From: a virus
Taxonomy: Duplodnaviria; Heunggongvirae; Uroviricota; Caudoviricetes
IMG/VR virus record: IMGVR_UViG_648276670_000008
Location: 1 to 24,154 of that record
Direction: 5' to 3' (one strand)
Length of the DNA stretch: 24,154 nucleotides
A program made the translations under genes and the position numbers. Position 1 is the stretch's first letter. Every line of letters starts with the position of its first letter. Under the pieces are notes generated by a model. The model was given only the letters and a program-made list of their open reading frames with translations. It was not told the DNA's origin and made no database searches. Shown here piece after piece: positions 1 to 7,273 of this stretch.

Positions 1-1158
1 ATGCTCACCGTTAAACAGATTGAAGCAGCAAAGCCGAAAGAAAAACCATACCGCCTACTCGATGGTAATGGCCTGTACCTTTATGTCCCTGTATCCGGAA
101 AAAAGGTCTGGCAGCTTCGCTACAAGATTGACGGTAAGGAGAAAATCCTGACCGTAGGAAAATATCCGCTAATGACTTTGCAGGAGGCAAGAGATAAAGC
201 ATGGACCGCGAGGAAAGACATCTCGGTTGGCATCGATCCGGTAAAAGCGAAAAAGGCTTCGTCTAACAACAATTCCTTTAGTGCGATTTACAAGGAATGG
301 TACGAGCACAAGAAGCAAGTCTGGTCAGTAGGCTATGCAAATGAACTTGCAAAAATGTTTGATGACGACATTTTACCTATCATCGGCGGCCTTGAAATTC
401 AGGATATTGAGCCGATGCAACTACTGGAAGTAATCCGCAGATTTGAAGATCGCGGGGCAATGGAGCGAGCCAACAAAGCCCGCAGAAGATGCGGCGAGGT
501 TTTCCGTTACGCTATTGTCACTGGTAGGGCTAAATATAACCCGGCACCTGACCTTGCAGACGCCATGAAAGGATACCGCAAGAAGAACTTCCCGTTTCTT
601 CCTGCAGACCAGATCCCGGCATTCAACAAAGAGCTGGCAACATTTTCAGGAAGTATCGTATCGCTCATTGCCACCAAGGTTTTACGCTATACAGCCCTAA
701 GAACGAAAGAGCTTCGTTCCATGCAATGGAAGAACGTCGATTTTGAAAACAGGATTATCACCATCGACGCCAGTGTGATGAAGGGACGCAAAATTCATGT
801 GGTCCCGATGTCAGACCAGGTGGTTGAACTTCTCACTACGCTAAGCTCTATCACCAAACCAGTATCAGAGTTTGTTTTTGCCGGGCGCAACGATAAGAAA
901 AAGCCAATCTGCGAGAACGCGGTGCTACTTGTGATCAAACAAATCGGCTATGAAGGTCTGGAAAGCGGTCACGGATTCAGGCATGAATTCAGCACGATTA
1001 TGAACGAGCACGAATGGCCCGCCGACGCCATTGAAGTGCAACTGGCACATGCTAACGGCGGTTCTGTGCGCGGGATTTACAACCATGCTCAGTATCTCGA
1101 TAAGCGCAGAGAAATGATGCAGTGGTGGGCGGACTGGCTTGATGAAAAGGTGAAGTGA
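1..1158 (+). CDS. int: Tyrosine integrase, P4-like family (site-specific recombinase)
   Basis: 385-aa ORF starting with ATG at nt 1. The N-terminus (MLTVKQIEAAKPKEKPYRLLDGNGLYLYV...WQLRYKIDGKEK) has the arm-domain pattern of P4-type integrases. The C-terminus has an H-x-x-R box (GHGFRHEF) and a likely tyrosine nucleophile in VRGIYNHAQYLDKR. The N-terminus looks complete although the gene begins at the window edge. Confidence 0.9.
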   Translation: MLTVKQIEAAKPKEKPYRLLDGNGLYLYVPVSGKKVWQLRYKIDGKEKILTVGKYPLMTLQEARDKAWTARKDISVGIDPVKAKKASSNNNSFSAIYKEWYEHKKQVWSVGYANELAKMFDDDILPIIGGLEIQDIEPMQLLEVIRRFEDRGAMERANKARRRCGEVFRYAIVTGRAKYNPAPDLADAMKGYRKKNFPFLPADQIPAFNKELATFSGSIVSLIATKVLRYTALRTKELRSMQWKNVDFENRIITIDASVMKGRKIHVVPMSDQVVELLTTLSSITKPVSEFVFAGRNDKKKPICENAVLLVIKQIGYEGLESGHGFRHEFSTIMNEHEWPADAIEVQLAHANGGSVRGIYNHAQYLDKRREMMQWWADWLDEKVK

Positions 1159-1395
1159 TCTACCTTAATAACTATCGAATAGCATAAATCCTTGCAATCC
1201 AGTACAAATCTTCTTGTGTCTGAATTTTAGACATTACTCATGCAAGTTATCGATCGCTAAGGATTTTGGTGATAGACTCCACATCGTTATAAAGGCTTGT
1301 TGTGCAGATTGGCTATCAACTACCACAATGATACTTGGTGTGCATCATACTAACATTGTTACTGATTATCACTTAAAATTAATTGGCATAAGGTA

Positions 1396-2463
1396 ATGAA
1401 CAGAAATAATTCATTCGATATTGCAAGACATATTGCTGCGCTAGCTGTTATTTTCAGCCATCACTTTGCATTCAATGGCATTCCTGAACCAAAAGTTTTA
1501 GGAATAACAAAACTTGGAACCTTTGCTGTTTTAGTTTTTTTCTCTATATCTGGGTATCTAATTGCAGGAAGCTATCTAAATAGCAGTTCTTTACAATCAT
1601 ACTATACAAAGCGTATAAAAAGAATCTTTCCAGCACTAATAGTATGCTCATTTGTCATGATATATATCATATGCCCTATTTTCGGTACAGGAAATGGCAT
1701 AGACTACATCTTATCAGAGAATGCATTTATTGCATTTTTAGACTACTCAACTCTTGGTTGGCATCCAAGCGACATAAATGGATTTGCCAGTAACTATATT
1801 CATAAGAATATGTTAAATGGAAGTTTATGGACTCTTGGATTTGAGTTTACAGCCTATGTGTTATTATCAATAATTTTATTTAGAAAGAAAAATATCATAG
1901 CATCAACATTTTTTGCTATTTGCTTTTTTATTGTTATCCAGTTATCCATTTTGAATGGCATAAAAATACCTCACACAGGTGATCTTAATAGGCTATCTCT
2001 TCTATGCACTACGTTTTTATGTGGTTCTTTGTTATATATTACAAGAAGTTATTGGTCCACAACAAGTGCAAAAATCACTCTAATAGTATTAGCTTTATCA
2101 TGTGCATTATTTATAAGTGAAAAAAATGAATATGATCTAATGTTTTATATTTCTGTTCCATTCTTTATAGTTCCATTATGCACATTGTTTACAGACAAAA
2201 TAATCAACGGCAAGTTTGATATATCTTATGGGATGTATATTTATGCTTATCCGATTCAGCAAATAATTGTAAACAAAGCTAACCTAGGATTTTATGGTTC
2301 ACTGTTTACGTCTTTATTATTAATAATTATTTTAGCTTGCGCATCGTGGTTACTTATTGAAAAGAGATTTTTGGTAAAAAGTAAAAGAAAGCAAAGGAAA
2401 TGTCGCATGTATGTTAAGCACTCTCTTATCTGCACATTGTATATATTGGTGAGCATTATATAA
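1396..2463 (+). CDS. Acyltransferase family 3 integral membrane protein, putative O-antigen O-acetyltransferase (Oac/OafA-like)
   Basis: 355-aa, very hydrophobic multi-TM ORF with ATG start. It carries AT3-type motifs (VLVFFSISGYLIAGSY and RIKRIFPAL) and a size close to phage Oac. The coding sequence is very AT-rich. Confidence 0.8.
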   Translation: MNRNNSFDIARHIAALAVIFSHHFAFNGIPEPKVLGITKLGTFAVLVFFSISGYLIAGSYLNSSSLQSYYTKRIKRIFPALIVCSFVMIYIICPIFGTGNGIDYILSENAFIAFLDYSTLGWHPSDINGFASNYIHKNMLNGSLWTLGFEFTAYVLLSIILFRKKNIIASTFFAICFFIVIQLSILNGIKIPHTGDLNRLSLLCTTFLCGSLLYITRSYWSTTSAKITLIVLALSCALFISEKNEYDLMFYISVPFFIVPLCTLFTDKIINGKFDISYGMYIYAYPIQQIIVNKANLGFYGSLFTSLLLIIILACASWLLIEKRFLVKSKRKQRKCRMYVKHSLICTLYILVSII

Positions 2464-2633
2464 TGTATTATTGTTGCAGCCTGATACATTATAAAGCAGA
2501 CATTTATGCTTGATGTTTTTTAGGTGTTGGTTTTCATAATTCACAACCACACACGTATAACAAACATTAAGACATATCGTCCAAAAGATAGTTTATGTTA
2601 CAATTTTAAAGAATAAACTTAAGATAATTGCAT

Positions 2634-2948
2634 ATGTTCAAAATTTTTTTAAAAGGAACCAGCGTACCAAAAGAAATTCTGTCCTTTCACAGGAGAAGTC
2701 ATGAAAGCGTACTTCCAAAGAGAGTAGAATTTACAAGAGCTGTTCTTATAACAGAAAAATATGGCGAGATCCATGTTAGACCAATTTATGGAATATTAAA
2801 AGCAAACAGTATTTACATTGATGAAATTGGCGGATGTATAGTAAAAGGCGGTATTAATGGTACAATTATTCACAACCTGCCAATATTTAACTTACCATCA
2901 ATAACAATAATGTTATTAATTGTAGCTTTGGCGTTAAATTATGTTTAA
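2634..2948 (+). CDS. Hypothetical protein (weak call) in AT-rich spacer
   Basis: The ORF-track start at 2628 is TTG; the first ATG is at 2634, giving 104 aa. There is no convincing Shine-Dalgarno. The stop overlaps the wzx-like start by 8 nt. No recognisable family. Confidence 0.2.
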   Translation: MFKIFLKGTSVPKEILSFHRRSHESVLPKRVEFTRAVLITEKYGEIHVRPIYGILKANSIYIDEIGGCIVKGGINGTIIHNLPIFNLPSITIMLLIVALALNYV

Positions 2949-4176
2949 TAAATTTGCTGTCCTCAGAAATTTTGCATCGCTAGGGTTAATGCAGGTCATT
3001 AACTATGTGCTTCCTATTGTTATAATACCGTTCCTGGTTAATAAAATAGGAATTTATAATGTAGGCTTAATTGCAACATTCACCGCCATAGCGGCATATA
3101 TGCAGCTAGTTATAGATTATGGCTTCAATCTTTCTGCAACAAGAAATATATCAAAGGACGGATATGATGATTATCATGCATCGATAATAAGCAGTTCTGT
3201 TTTTGTCATAAAGGTGACAATGTCATTAGCATTAATTGCATTATCATTTTTCATTATGAAATTGGCGTCAAACTCAGAAGAACATATAATAACATTTATG
3301 TTTACAGTTGGCATTGTTGTTTTTCAGTCTTTATTTCCAGTTTGGCATTTTCAAGCCGCAGAAAGAATGCACTACATAACAATGTGTAATGGTGTACCAA
3401 AATTGATATCAGCCTGCATGATTTTTTACTTTGTAAGCTCTCCAGGTGATACATGGAAGGTGCAGGCATGCTTTATGTTAGGAGCCGCAGCATCTTTTAT
3501 TTTATCTTTGTTTATTTTGAAATCTAAATTTAATTTTAGGTTATTGATATCATTCACTGAATGCAAAAATCAGATTATTGATGGGTATGCTATTTTTTTA
3601 GCACGATTGGCGTCAGGGCTATACAAAAATTTCAATGTGCTTATTCTCGGAGCATTTGCTGGAACTGCGGCAGTAGGAACTTATTCTATCGCAGAAAGAA
3701 TAATAAGAAGCGCTCAAATGGTTCAGAATGTAGTTGGTGATACTCTTTACCCTTTATTCTCTAAAGAATTTACTGGCAATAAATTATTTTTCAAACACGC
3801 AGCAGATAAATACAAGTGGCATATAATAATATTTTACACTCTTGCATCACTAGCTATTTTCTACCTCTCTGGAATAATTGGGAAAATAATGGGTGGGGCA
3901 TCAGCAGATAATGTATCCTCTTGCCTTAAAATAATGTCAATCGCCTTTCTTTTTGGCGGGATGAACTACGTTTTAGCTATACTTGGATTAACATCTTGTG
4001 GGTATGCCAAACAATTTTCATTGTGCGTAATATCGGCAGGTTTGTTTAATGTTCTATGTGCTACTTTTTTATCTTTTTTCTTTTCTTATTATGGAACTTC
4101 AGTAGCTCTTGTTTTAAGCGAGTTTTTTCTCCTTTGCTTTGTTATTTTTTATTCTAAAAGGACTGGTATACTATGA
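2941..4176 (+). CDS. wzx: Wzx-like polysaccharide/O-unit flippase (polysaccharide biosynthesis protein, MOP/PST superfamily)
   Basis: 411-aa multi-TM protein. The N-terminal region (LMQVINYVLPIVIIPFLVNKIGIYNVG) resembles the conserved Wzx/PST N-terminus. Very AT-rich. Its stop overlaps the downstream GT2 start (ATGA at 4173-4176). Confidence 0.75.
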   Translation: MFNKFAVLRNFASLGLMQVINYVLPIVIIPFLVNKIGIYNVGLIATFTAIAAYMQLVIDYGFNLSATRNISKDGYDDYHASIISSSVFVIKVTMSLALIALSFFIMKLASNSEEHIITFMFTVGIVVFQSLFPVWHFQAAERMHYITMCNGVPKLISACMIFYFVSSPGDTWKVQACFMLGAAASFILSLFILKSKFNFRLLISFTECKNQIIDGYAIFLARLASGLYKNFNVLILGAFAGTAAVGTYSIAERIIRSAQMVQNVVGDTLYPLFSKEFTGNKLFFKHAADKYKWHIIIFYTLASLAIFYLSGIIGKIMGGASADNVSSCLKIMSIAFLFGGMNYVLAILGLTSCGYAKQFSLCVISAGLFNVLCATFLSFFFSYYGTSVALVLSEFFLLCFVIFYSKRTGIL

Positions 4177-5066
4177 CTCCATTTACTACTGTCTTGGTTA
4201 CATATGCTGATAGAGGCCACCTGTTAAAACAAGTTGTATCATCAGTAGTATCATCCGGGTGTGATAATATAATTATTATAGATAATGGGAGTCATGAGAG
4301 TAGCAAGAAAATAATAAACTCGATGCCTGTTAATTATAGTGACATAAAATTCACTATTCATAAAAATGAAAAAAATGAAGGCTCCGCGATTGCATTCGGC
4401 ATTGGGATGGATCTGGCATCAAGTAATGAAAACAAAAATGAAATAGTGTTATTTCTGGATGATGACAATCTACCTAAAGATGGAGCAATTCAAGATGCCA
4501 TCAAATTCTCATTGTCAGATAATGAGAATAAAAATGTTTACTTTTTGCTCCGTGAAGACAGGCCGCACTATATTGAATTTGTAAGAACAAAAAACCAAGA
4601 TGTTCTCCTTGGAGAAAAAAACTCTTTTATGTCATTCACTTTGAAAAAATACTTAAAAAGCATAGTAAATAAGCTTAACAAAACAGAAATACAAGAAAAG
4701 TATGATTCATTCAGCGATAGTTGCATTCAAATCCCTTGCGGTCCATACGGAGGAATGTTAACAAAAAAATCAATCTTATCCAATGGGATAAGACCATTCA
4801 AAGATATGGTGTTATATTTTGACGATACAAAATATACTTATGATCTATCATTATCTGGAGTAAAGCTATTTCTTTTGACAAAATGTTTCATTAATGATAT
4901 TGATGATTCATGGTCAGCGGTTAAAACAAAAAAACATCCTCACCACTCTTTGAGGCTGGTGAGTTTAAAATATCACATACAATTAGAAATAGGGTGTTTT
5001 TTGAACTTTACGCGACAACAAACAATGTGCCAATATATGTTGTTAATATATTTTTCTTCATGTTAA
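4173..5066 (+). CDS. Glycosyltransferase family 2, WbbL-like (soluble, cytoplasmic-face type)
   Basis: 297-aa ORF. N-terminal GT-A pattern (TTVLVTYADRGHLLKQVVSSV...IIIIDNGS), a DxD-like LFLDDDN motif, and a C-terminal region resembling WbbL-type rhamnosyltransferases (GGMLTKKSILSNGIRPF...VLYFDDTKYTYDLSLSGVKLF). No C-terminal TM anchor of the GtrB type is evident. Translationally coupled to wzx. Confidence 0.7.
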   Translation: MTPFTTVLVTYADRGHLLKQVVSSVVSSGCDNIIIIDNGSHESSKKIINSMPVNYSDIKFTIHKNEKNEGSAIAFGIGMDLASSNENKNEIVLFLDDDNLPKDGAIQDAIKFSLSDNENKNVYFLLREDRPHYIEFVRTKNQDVLLGEKNSFMSFTLKKYLKSIVNKLNKTEIQEKYDSFSDSCIQIPCGPYGGMLTKKSILSNGIRPFKDMVLYFDDTKYTYDLSLSGVKLFLLTKCFINDIDDSWSAVKTKKHPHHSLRLVSLKYHIQLEIGCFLNFTRQQTMCQYMLLIYFSSC

Positions 5067-5149
5067 TTTTGTTTGTAAAAGCTTTGACATCTAATAACAT
5101 GAGAACATTTTTGAAAATATCAAAATATATCATTGATGGTGTTAGGTTT

Positions 5150-5178
5150 TATAAAGAAAAGGCCCACTAAGTGGGCTT
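5150..5178. terminator. Bidirectional intrinsic terminator between convergent GT2 and tailspike genes
   Basis: GC-rich inverted repeat GGCCCAC-TAA-GTGGGC(T) at 5161-5177, flanked by an A-run upstream and TTTATCT downstream on the plus strand. On the minus strand the stem is followed by TTTTCTTTAT, so it fits best as the tailspike terminator. Confidence 0.5.
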
Positions 5179-5188
5179 TATCTGAATA

Positions 5189-7093
5189 TTAAAACTCTGG
5201 AGCATACGTTCCTGAGACAAAAATAGTGGCACCCAGTGATTTAATAAAATCAGGTTTCACCAGAAGGCCACGCAAAGATACGGCAACCCATTTGCTGGTT
5301 TGAACGTTTGCTGCCTGTACCAAAGTTTTTGTAGTTGAGGGAGCATACACACCAACAGTTGCCTGCGGGTCTTCTAACGTTGTAGTGGTGTAATAAGATG
5401 CTATTGGTATTCTGGTTGTATGACCATGAGTTAATGTGACATTCCCATTTCCGGTTGGTTCTGCATTGACAATTGATGATACCCAAGATGGTGGTATTGT
5501 AGGGGGTCTCCCATACCTAATCTCCCCAGTATCTACATTAACTATAATTTCTAGATCTGCGTAGATTGACACTCGTAAGTTGTAGTCTTTCCCTACGTTG
5601 AACCTGTCAGCAATTGCGTAAAGTCCGGTAGTAAGAGATGATCTATCCATGTCCGCAGTGAAGTCAAACCAACACGCTGCGTTATCAGAAACTGTAAATA
5701 AAAGAGAGTTATCATCTTCAGCCACAGCAACCTTACAAAAATTAGAAGGACGAATGACGCCAGTATCGTTATTAATATTTAAAATTTGCCATGATGAGCT
5801 CGAAGATGCATAACGCGCGGCAGCTGCGCAGTGTTTTGCTCGTAACCAAGGAGCGATGCCATTTGCCGTATACTGCATAAAGTCATTGACTGTCTTTGTC
5901 TTTGTTCCTCCAGCTTCCACTGACCAGAGTCCTCGGGCAGCGCCAGCCCCCATTGTGTTATAACCTTTTTGGGTATAATGCACACCTTCTGTACCAACGT
6001 TTCCATCGCGATTCAAAAAAGATGGGCAGCCATCAAAAGCTGTAACAGCAATATCTCTACCATTGACAACGTAACGCTGTGCGTTTTGAATAGTTTGCCA
6101 AGAATATTCTGGTCTATTTTTAGGGCACCCTACCGTACAGTTCGCGAATCTTGCCATAGGTATATCTGAAGATAGATCATCTATAAGTTTCACGAAAAGT
6201 CCGCGATAAGTATCAAATGATGTGCCATTTAGTTGATCTGTTTCCCCTTGGTGGAAAAGAACGTATACTTTACCTACAGGAAGCTCCTGAGTATTCATTC
6301 TTGCAAGTGTGTTATTAACAGACGACACCAAAAGCTCATAATAACCATCACCAACTGGTGATTTAGATAATTGAGAAATTGATGTTGCTCCACGTCCACA
6401 ATGTACAACTACAGCTCCCCTTCCGCTTAAACGATACCATTCATTGGCAAACTCCCCCCAGGCATGCCCTGAGGATGCAACTCCCGATGAACTAACCATA
6501 TTCTGAATTATTGGCTTTATAGTTCCATCCCTGAAATCGTACATTAACGATTTTGGAAGAGGGTCAGGAAAGCCAGATGTATCACCTGATAAAATAGCCT
6601 CGCCTGCACTATTTGACTGCCCATACGTAACAAATATATCGTATACATCTGGTGACTCAAGATATTCTGTCGCAATAACATTACTTGCTATTTTTGATGC
6701 TGTTACTCCAGATATTATTGCTGAACTATTATTTTCTGATAGCCTTCTTTCTAATTGATCTGGATCATACTTCAATACATTTGGAAAATAGAACTGCTGC
6801 GAACCATACGCATCATAAACAGCCATAGAATGTCCTTGCACGGTAACGAACTTGGCAATCTGTCCGTTATATACCGGATATCCAGCAGCGTTAATGGTGA
6901 TTGGTTGAGAAACAGGAACGTGAGAACCGTCCTCGCTCTCCATATAAACCTGAATCTGGTTTTCAGGATTTACAGGATCAGTGTCAATCTGACCGATATA
7001 AATTTTACCATTGGCATTAGCTTTAAATGAACGAGATAAAGTAAATAATTGACTTGGTTGCGATACAACGATATTTGGCGTGATATCTGGCAT
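5189..7093 (-). CDS. 9: Tailspike protein: P22 gp9-type head-binding domain fused to a SASA/SGNH-type esterase-like receptor domain
   Basis: 634-aa ORF with ATG and GGAG Shine-Dalgarno. The first ~115 aa closely match the P22 tailspike N-terminal head-binding domain as I remember it (…[24 protein letters not shown]…TVQGHSMA…NVLKYDPDQ). The remainder is unrelated to the P22 beta-helix and carries esterase-like motifs GQSN (158-161), QGETD (282-286) and a His in GVHYTQ (372). Confidence 0.9.
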
Positions 7094-7195
7094 TGATTTG
7101 CTCCTGGCATAGAAAAGCTGTGTAAGATATAACTTTCACAGACTTGCATTAAATTCGGTTAAAATTAGTTAATTACTCTGGGTGGAGGGTTGGCT

Positions 7196-7273
7196 ATGCA
7201 AAGAGATATGCTGAATATTGCGTTCTACATATTTGGTTTTTGCACGTTCCTGGTGTTTGCGAAGCTATTCTGA
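7196..7273 (+). CDS. Candidate small hydrophobic peptide (25 aa), speculative
   Basis: ATG at 7196 preceded by a strong GGAGG Shine-Dalgarno (7184-7188, 7-nt spacer). It encodes MQRDMLNIAFYIFGFCTFLVFAKLF, a single predicted TM helix. Below the ORF-track size cutoff. Convergent with gene 16 and overlaps its 3' end by 9 nt. Confidence 0.25.
   Translation: MQRDMLNIAFYIFGFCTFLVFAKLF

Follow-up and report, generated by a model that had tools for sequence, protein, structure and literature searches.

A low-GC island lies at positions 1159-5188 of the window, the 24,154-nt stretch of Caudoviricetes DNA analyzed here (IMG/VR record IMGVR_UViG_648276670_000008, positions 1 to 24,154), with an integrase gene on one side and a tailspike gene on the other; all positions below refer to the whole window, and labels of the form L001 denote compared loci. 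Four genes were found on its plus strand: an Oac-like membrane acyltransferase of the AT3 family (1396-2463), a small open reading frame (ORF) of 104 amino acids (ORF104, 2634-2948; also present among the gene calls of L001, L005 and L006), a Wzx-type flippase of 411 amino acids (2941-4176), and a family 2 glycosyltransferase (GT2), which is read as 297 amino acids in the window (4173-5066) and as 332 amino acids when intact (4173-5170). The three larger reading frames and the ATGA overlap that joins wzx and GT2 (4173-4176) had been described in a first-pass annotation made from the sequence alone and were borne out, and Pfam profile searches upheld its three family assignments (Acyl_transf_3, 4e-20; Polysacc_synt, 1.6e-41; Glycos_transf_2, 2.2e-11); ORF104 had been missed. 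The same annotation had judged the island, by eye, to be far more AT-rich than the flanking phage genes, and computation agreed: GC content was 0.29-0.35 along the island and about 0.47-0.56 in the phage backbone, and GC at third codon positions (GC3) was 0.23-0.28 in the island genes with respect to 0.46-0.54 in int and gene 16. The low GC3 (0.29) continued past the island into the receptor-binding part of the tailspike.

The left edge of the slot is formed by an IntS-type (P4-like) tyrosine integrase (1-1158, plus strand; Pfam Phage_integrase, 3.7e-39, with Arm-DNA-bind_3 and Phage_int_M), and the right edge by a tailspike gene that combines a P22 head-binding domain with a SASA domain (5189-7093, minus strand) and is convergent with the island. 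This is the int/tailspike placement initially proposed, and the idea that the slot is one used by phages for conversion genes is in line with Sf6, which carries oac there. The window was 100% identical to NCBI assembly GCA_000176635.2, where the prophage is found at the tRNA-Arg(CCT) gene argW, just upstream of int, beside fadL-mlaA-yfdC; the tRNA gene was detected in L002. Its backbone is that of a P22-like Lederbergvirus, approximately 95% identical to the E. coli phages IME10 and APC_JM3.2. Homology to these two phages (megablast) starts only at about position 6756, i.e. at the head-binding domain of the tailspike, and homology of the int flank ends near 1283, so that the segment unique to this phage extends over approximately 1284-6755 and includes the receptor-binding part of the tailspike. 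Since in related P22-like argW prophages from complete E. coli genomes int adjoins the tailspike gene, or is separated from it by just an insertion sequence (IS) and two small genes, the island fills an optional cargo slot.

Four other assemblies, GCA_017763145.1, SRR8157255, SRR6362715 and SRR17116062, carry the same prophage and, over the stretches covered, differ from the window within the island at two 1-bp sites only: positions 2383-2386, with A4 in the window and A5 in the other four, and positions 4928-4934, with A7 and A8, respectively. One further mismatch was found across the 14.2 kb common to the window and L001. With the missing base restored, AT3 has 340 residues instead of 355, the deletion having altered the 11 at the C-terminal end of the intact protein, and GT2 ends at position 5170, the ORF at 4994-5170 being its displaced, out-of-frame C-terminus. 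All eight homopolymers of at least 7 nt in the 24-kb window fall inside the island. Such poly-A differences are what sequencing errors at homopolymers in older drafts typically look like, and genuine inactivation, or slippage at tracts that might be phase-variable, is possible as well.

The four island genes are tightly coupled and share a terminal hairpin. All of them showed ratios of nonsynonymous to synonymous polymorphism (pN/pS) of 0.26-0.43 and are under purifying selection. The GC-rich hairpin (GGCCCAC-TAA-GTGGGC, 5161-5176), read from the sequence and giving a terminator-like match on the minus strand, covers the stop codon of the intact GT2 frame and lies 18 bp from the tailspike stop; it is likely the shared terminator of the two convergent transcription units. 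No Dam/OxyR-type phase-variation signature, as known from P22 gtr, was apparent, with a single GATC in two intergenic regions.

Protein families of the island and the tailspike

Based on its family matches, the 411-residue protein is predicted to be a lipid-linked glycan flippase of the PST/Wzx type (MOP superfamily). The match to Polysacc_synt (PF01943) reached 143 bits, against a gathering score of 28.2, and covered 272 of the 274 profile positions, and a profile built from 18 Wzx homologues matched a solved teichoic-acid subunit flippase (9xzn) over residues 6-410 (E 8e-9). These matches agree with the earlier description of a full-size Wzx-like protein. Crude hydropathy, a method that does not give the exact number of transmembrane (TM) segments, resulted in 10 peaks, 12 TM segments being typical of the family.

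GT2 was placed by several comparisons in a GlfT2/WbbL-like branch, as had been suggested from its sequence. Among fold relatives GlfT2 ranked first (22.8, with 271 residues aligned; next-best 19.5), far above ArnC (14.3), the dolichyl-phosphate mannose synthase DPMS (13.8) and GtrB (13.7), and the same order, with GlfT2 above GtrB, ArnC and DPMS, was given by Foldseek. The family profile could be aligned to Nocardia GlfT2 through the motifs NxGSAG, DDD, DDxEY and YxxRNR, at positions that are invariant in the family, sequence identity to GlfT2 being just 12-14%. The protein thus presents a GT-A domain and a C-terminal helical domain with the NxGxxG, DDD, DDxE and RNR motifs of GlfT2/WbbL-like enzymes. 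Assignment to the GtrB type was rejected: the profile overlap with GtrB comprised 92 columns of generic GT-A core, and the two-TM hairpin of GtrB-type enzymes is absent. From the ranking, the motifs and the weak GtrB match, GT2 is grouped with the glycosyltransferases that work on the cytoplasmic face to lengthen glycans linked to lipid pyrophosphate, and is set apart from polyprenol-phosphate sugar synthases. The intact protein has a hydrophobic C-terminal helix at residues 288-306, which is hydrophobic in the enterobacterial members and amphipathic in distant ones, and which we predict to be a membrane-association element distinct from the GtrB hairpin; because of this helix GT2 is not simply soluble, contrary to what was first proposed. 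A search of viral structures in BFVD with GT2 gave matches to the generic GT-A core only (TM-score at most 0.52).

ORF104 overlaps the start of wzx by 8 nt and is predicted to be translationally coupled to it. Its pN/pS of 0.43, obtained with saturated synonymous sites, indicates that the gene is truly protein-coding. The product carries a hydrophobic helix at its C-terminus and has no match in Pfam, NCBIfam or PHROG and three database homologues only, and its AlphaFold2 model (mean confidence, pLDDT, 53) was too weak for a fold search. Homologues with 54-67% identity are encoded directly upstream of wzx in L096, L099, L100 and L101, and none was found in L007, L010, L092, L093, L095 and L098, which include all the chromosomal copies of the cassette seen and the copy in an Enterobacter prophage. 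Among the copies seen, ORF104 is therefore confined to those borne by phages, all of which except the Enterobacter one carry it, and this restriction suggests a role particular to the conversion setting. By analogy with the small inhibitors of phages D3 and epsilon-15, it may be conjectured that ORF104 acts as an adaptor or inhibitor of the resident pathway. In a 949-bp contig from ENA (P0191), the N-terminal part of ORF104 (58 residues; 84% identity over 65% of the query) runs into a membrane segment of the TspO/MBR family (PF03073); this join may be a fusion, or the short contig may be chimeric or misassembled.

The acyltransferase is predicted to be an AT3-only O-acetyltransferase of the Sf6 Oac type, located in the same slot as Sf6 oac. 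Its best phage relative was Sf6 Oac itself (34% identity over 98% of the length, E 2e-45), as expected from the first description of the gene, and it also matched the O-acetyltransferase family phrog_3333 (2e-36). The Acyl_transf_3 domain spans residues 4-319 of 355, with no fused SGNH domain, and seven strong hydropathy peaks were observed. The sequence contains ...ARHIAALAVIFSHH... in the TM1 histidine region, FFSISG at residue 48 and RIKR at residue 73, corresponding to the TM1 His, FFxISG and RxxR motifs that we take, from the AT3 literature, as the set for comparison. No match to AT3 was found among 5,426 complete E. coli genomes, even in a distant-mode search. Moreover, no other copy of the cassette was accompanied by AT3, whose place is taken by gtrABC in Hafnia prophages, so that it is best regarded as an independent module; the earlier suggestion that AT3 acylates the product of GT2 found no support.

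The tailspike, for its part, is predicted from its domains to be a carbohydrate O-acetylesterase of the SASA/SGNH type mounted on a P22 head-binding domain, and not a depolymerase. The head-binding domain corresponds to residues 1-113 (6755-7093, minus strand; Pfam Head_binding, 4.6e-65) and the receptor-binding part to residues 114-634 (5189-6754, minus strand; Pfam SASA, 6.9e-13), the SASA match covering residues 151-387 and a GQSN motif being located at residue 158. The esterase part was 54-68% identical among the window, L096, L100 and L101, in which the N-terminal attachment domains differ. As this part is kept across L096, L100 and L101, and as it shares the low GC3 of the island, cassette and receptor-binding domain appear to move together. 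The receptor-binding part was also approximately 53% identical to tail proteins of the Klebsiella phages KP8, vB_Kpn16-P2, VLCpiA3a/b, K48PH164C1 and phi1_146018. An O-acetylase (AT3) and an O-acetylesterase tailspike form an odd pairing within a single phage.

Distribution of the wzx-GT2 cassette

Wzx homologues with 44-73% identity were rare and scattered through the Enterobacterales, and the cassette was found in E. coli, Hafnia, Enterobacter, Klebsiella, Lelliottia, Erwinia and Serratia. Wzx was followed by an overlapping or abutting gene for a GT2 of about 330 amino acids in all the contexts examined but one, Klebsiella sp. L012 (Wzx identity of 48%), where no GT2 homologue was present. 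Across eight loci the two proteins diverged in parallel, over a range of 41-73% for both, and they constitute a co-diverging, co-inherited cassette.

In prophages, the cassette was located beside receptor-binding genes in at least four unrelated backbones. The window represents the E. coli P22-like arrangement, in which int-AT3-ORF104-wzx-GT2 is convergent with the SASA tailspike. In a prophage of Enterobacter hormaechei, wzx-GT2 converges on a gene for a beta-helix tailspike from another type of phage, with neither AT3 nor ORF104. In Hafnia paralvei and related metagenomic contigs, gtrABC and one reverse-strand gene are followed by ORF105-wzx-GT2 and then by a tailspike with Tail_spike_N and SASA domains. 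The siphovirus-type prophage L100 carries an ORF104 homologue, wzx, GT2 and a SASA tailspike, and in L099, from a phage with a Mu Gp48 baseplate, ORF104-wzx-GT2 adjoins tail genes. One of the Hafnia paralvei copies (L101, GCA_949789945.1, 3446-11957), a siphovirus-type prophage, presents two conversion systems side by side, a complete gtrABC and ORF105-wzx-GT2.

The chromosomal copies were found in polysaccharide regions. In E. coli SW070917 (L098, NZ_CM129862.1, 2026250-2060213) the order is galF-rfbBDAC-GT2-EpsG(wzy)-GT-GT-manCB-GT-gnd-ugd-[wzx-GT2]-IS remnant-epimerase-wzzB, where GT stands for glycosyltransferase; as this complete galF-gnd cluster has wzy and glycosyltransferases and no wzx, the cassette is the sole source of wzx for the O-antigen locus of this strain, whose cluster was unique among the 5,426 complete E. 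coli genomes. Lelliottia amnigena shows the same arrangement (ugd-[wzx-GT2]-epimerase-wzz), and in Erwinia rhapontici wzx-GT2 is inverted inside an rml/EpsG cluster; no other wzx was seen in either stretch. In K. pneumoniae (L092 and L093), wzx-GT2 has the K locus (ugd/uge) on one side and the wzm-wzt O locus on the other. The chromosomal clusters with the cassette contained rml genes, and no glf was seen in them. A genetic role as flippase of a Wzy-dependent pathway can thus be assigned to homologues of Wzx, and not to the window copy. These contexts support the capture of the cassette from Wzx/Wzy-dependent O-antigen loci, as the first-pass annotation had supposed for the island: homologous Wzx-GT2 pairs occur in chromosomal O-antigen regions, and in SW070917 the pair includes the only wzx.

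Relatives were scarce in the databases searched. The island cassette was absent from 50,697 phage genomes, which yielded int-flank matches only, and a tblastn search with Wzx gave three weak metagenomic matches. No copy of the island was found in the 5,426 complete E. coli genomes, where a single diverged wzx-GT2 copy, that of SW070917, was detected; a scan of IMG/VR with the Wzx alignment gave no relatives, and no PHROG family matched Wzx, GT2 or ORF104. Among GTDB species representatives, the scan returned almost only generic PST flippases (29-39% identity), with one moderately close sequence from Klebsiella sp. (48%, without GT2). Given its absence from PHROGs, from the 50,697 phage genomes and from IMG/VR, the cassette would not be flagged as lysogenic conversion by current annotation pipelines. 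Within K. pneumoniae the picture is different, as the Wzx cluster of that species contains 308 member sequences and is therefore not rare there. Locus L092 also encodes a 525-residue protein that was assigned to no family, and possibly represents a small third Wzx/Wzy glycan locus. In the Enterobacter prophage locus L007 (9276-9838), two small reverse-strand genes (of about 105-107 and 79 amino acids) lie upstream of wzx.

Predicted mode of conversion and competing explanations

On balance, the evidence tips towards a reading in which the int/tailspike slot holds two independent conversion modules. The first would consist of AT3, which would O-acetylate a surface polysaccharide, and the second of the translationally coupled ORF104-Wzx-GT2. 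In the second module, GT2 would add a sugar, taken from a host nucleotide-sugar, to an undecaprenyl-pyrophosphate (Und-PP)-linked glycan on the cytoplasmic face, the acceptor being either the O-unit of the host or an intermediate from an early step, for instance Und-PP-GlcNAc. A co-evolved phage Wzx would then flip the altered unit, presumably a poor substrate for the resident Wzx; flipping by the phage protein would avoid toxic sequestration of undecaprenyl phosphate (Und-P) and would display the changed glycan on the surface, where it would block re-adsorption by the phage's own esterase tailspike as well as by other glycan-specific phages. The choice of acceptor and of donor, expression of the genes in lysogens, the resulting phenotype and any part played by ORF104 are predictions. 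According to published work, Wzx flippases have a strong preference for the cognate O-unit, and O-units that have been altered build up on the cytoplasmic face, sequester Und-P and harm or kill the cell; for these reasons, a phage that encodes a cytoplasmic glycosyltransferase would be expected to bring a flippase too. The rationale initially offered for a matched flippase travelling with the glycosyltransferase is consistent with this gatekeeping.

Several observations weigh against such a scheme. The island contains no wzy, and polymerization of the changed unit would therefore depend on the tolerance of the host Wzy. The number of hits in a promoter scan (33, with 27.9 expected) was not above chance. 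The GT2 of the window is frameshifted at codon 252, with the loss of 81 residues that include the invariant R272 and N273 and the C-terminal domain. Moreover, the K. pneumoniae cassette is located beside complete K and O loci, in one case (L092) with an EpsG-type polymerase of its own, a setting which hints that the product of the cassette may be a glycan of its own and not a modified version of one already there.

This last possibility can be stated as an alternative to modification of the host unit: GT2 would extend Und-PP-GlcNAc, the universal product of WecA, to give a short glycan that the phage Wzx would flip and that WaaL would ligate to lipid A-core or, in the presence of a Wzy, that enzyme would polymerize, so that the core would be capped and/or Und-P drained from O-antigen synthesis, with a change of receptor regardless of the host O type. 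The occurrence of the cassette in many genera with very different O-antigens would be accounted for in this way, as would the K. pneumoniae L092 pair with its polymerase. GlfT2 is among the fold relatives of GT2, and GlfT1 and WbbL act early, on lipid-PP-GlcNAc(-Rha), which also fits. On the other hand, in SW070917, Lelliottia and Erwinia the pair appears integrated in an O-unit pathway with several glycosyltransferases, and the strong allelic divergence of both proteins (41-73%) resembles that of serotype-specific genes and not of enzymes with a universal acceptor. We consider a separate short glycan unlikely, if worth retaining.

It is somewhat less likely still that the genes are decaying passengers, both frameshifts in the window copy being real, GT2 inactive and the island no longer able to convert anything. 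With respect to the four other assemblies the window shows two 1-bp deletions, the one at 4928-4934 would, if real, probably leave its GT2 dead, and the concentration of long homopolymers in the island makes it prone to mutation. Both differences, however, fall in homopolymers, against a background of one substitution in 14.2 kb, which is the usual mark of sequencing error in older drafts; the four independent assemblies are intact, and the family is under purifying selection. The possibility of frameshifted remnants, raised at the outset as one that would undo the conversion hypothesis, applies in part to the window copy and not to its four sister copies.

A route similar to that of GtrABC, in which GT2 would charge Und-P, the Wzx-like protein would flip the resulting Und-P-sugar and AT3 or ORF104, as a hidden periplasmic transferase, would finish the reaction, is highly improbable: it would suit the membrane association of all the proteins and a slot that in other phages holds gtrABC, but GT2 shares just the generic GT-A core with GtrB and lacks its two-TM hairpin, GtrB, ArnC and DPMS rank far below GlfT2, the island encodes no GT-C protein, and Hafnia prophages carry a complete gtrABC plus the cassette, so that the two are not redundant.

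Returning to the reading with two modules, a broader version of it may be put forward tentatively, as possible rather than probable. ORF104-Wzx-GT2 may constitute a so far undescribed class of serotype-conversion module in phages, one that alters the Und-PP-linked repeat unit on the cytoplasmic side, passes the Wzx gate by means of its own flippase, employs ORF104 as a phage-specific adaptor or inhibitor, and travels with an esterase receptor-binding domain as a recognize-and-rewrite unit among podovirus-, siphovirus- and myovirus-type prophages of the Enterobacterales.

Relation to known conversion systems

The cassette is recurrent, would represent a variant of lysogenic conversion of surface polysaccharides, and is a member of none of the known multi-gene systems with which it was compared. 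The GtrABC systems (P22, SfV/SfX, Hf4s, CPS-53) are likewise phage cargo located by int or the tailspike gene and combine a flippase, a GT2 and a specificity component for the addition of a sugar to the O-antigen. They differ in that Gtr uses Und-P-glucose and a periplasmic GT-C enzyme, with no counterpart of the latter in the island, in the 120-residue GtrA, in place of which a 411-residue Wzx/PST protein is found here, and in GtrB, in place of which the island has a GlfT2-like GT2. Pfam gave no GtrA_DPMS_TM or Glucos_trans_II match in the island, and both domains adjoin the cassette in Hafnia prophages. The distinction from the periplasmic GtrABC route drawn in the first-pass annotation thus withstood comparison of GtrB, GtrA and GT-C features, none of which was encountered. 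Hf4s was considered as a precedent and ruled out, as its cluster is a standard GtrABC.

Sf6 resembles the window phage in having an AT3-only membrane acyltransferase of about 333-340 amino acids in the same int/tailspike slot of a P22-like phage, and differs from it in the identity of the two enzymes (just 34%), in the absence of a flippase-glycosyltransferase cassette alongside, and in its tailspike, an endorhamnosidase where an esterase is found here. In Pseudomonas phage D3 (Iap, Wzy-beta, Oac) and Salmonella phage epsilon-15, Wzy is replaced and the host enzyme inhibited. Common to these phages and the island are a phage-encoded substitute for an enzyme that processes the host O-antigen, a small membrane protein and, as far as D3 is concerned, an O-acetylase; there the polymerase Wzy is concerned, whereas here the flippase Wzx would be replaced and a new glycosyltransferase added.

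The chromosomal wzx-GT2 pairs of SW070917, Lelliottia amnigena and Erwinia rhapontici are similar both in sequence (51-62% identity for Wzx and 44-54% for GT2) and in their overlapping gene order. Unlike the phage copy, which would be extra to the host-encoded set, they lack ORF104, are located in O-antigen regions and appear to provide the primary flippase. As for the tailspike, esterase-type receptor-binding proteins have been described for G7C gp63.1, Pectobacterium phages PP99/Possum and Vi phages, in which a SGNH/SASA-type O-acetylesterase domain likewise stands in place of a depolymerase; here it is combined with a P22 head-binding domain, a temperate phage and linkage to a conversion cassette, the comparison with G7C gp63.1 being by description only.

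In a review of E. coli O-antigens, prophage-mediated changes are ascribed to gtr genes, and a literature search, which was not exhaustive, found no conversion system with a phage-borne wzx and glycosyltransferase. Phage conversion by a cytoplasmic-side glycosyltransferase together with Wzx thus appears undescribed. The phage conversion routes known to us comprise Gtr glucosylation, Oac/OafA acetylation, phosphoethanolamine addition and replacement of Wzy with inhibitors, all of which operate after translocation or on the polymerase. If the proposed mechanism is correct, a phage glycosyltransferase and a matched Wzx would achieve conversion at the cytoplasmic assembly step, and the cassette would represent a natural experiment on the substrate gating of Wzx, given that a flippase would be needed only if the resident one rejects the altered unit. 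Its presence in prophages of E. coli, Hafnia and Enterobacter and in polysaccharide regions of K. pneumoniae would be relevant to serotyping, vaccines and phage therapy, which are affected by changes in surface glycans in these bacteria. In addition, the linkage to an esterase receptor-binding domain would offer a means of pairing a phage receptor with its cognate masking system.

Two minor observations concern neighbouring regions. In the window, the gap between the tailspike gene and the gene-16 homologue (7094-7264) measures just about 170 bp; the immI region (ant/arc/mnt), absent at this point, sits between the same genes in the related EC6622 and ECONIH6 prophages. In E. coli ECONIH6 (L103, 4197-4753), a pair of genes just after intS has the same sizes as the pair upstream of wzx in L007, a likeness in size only.

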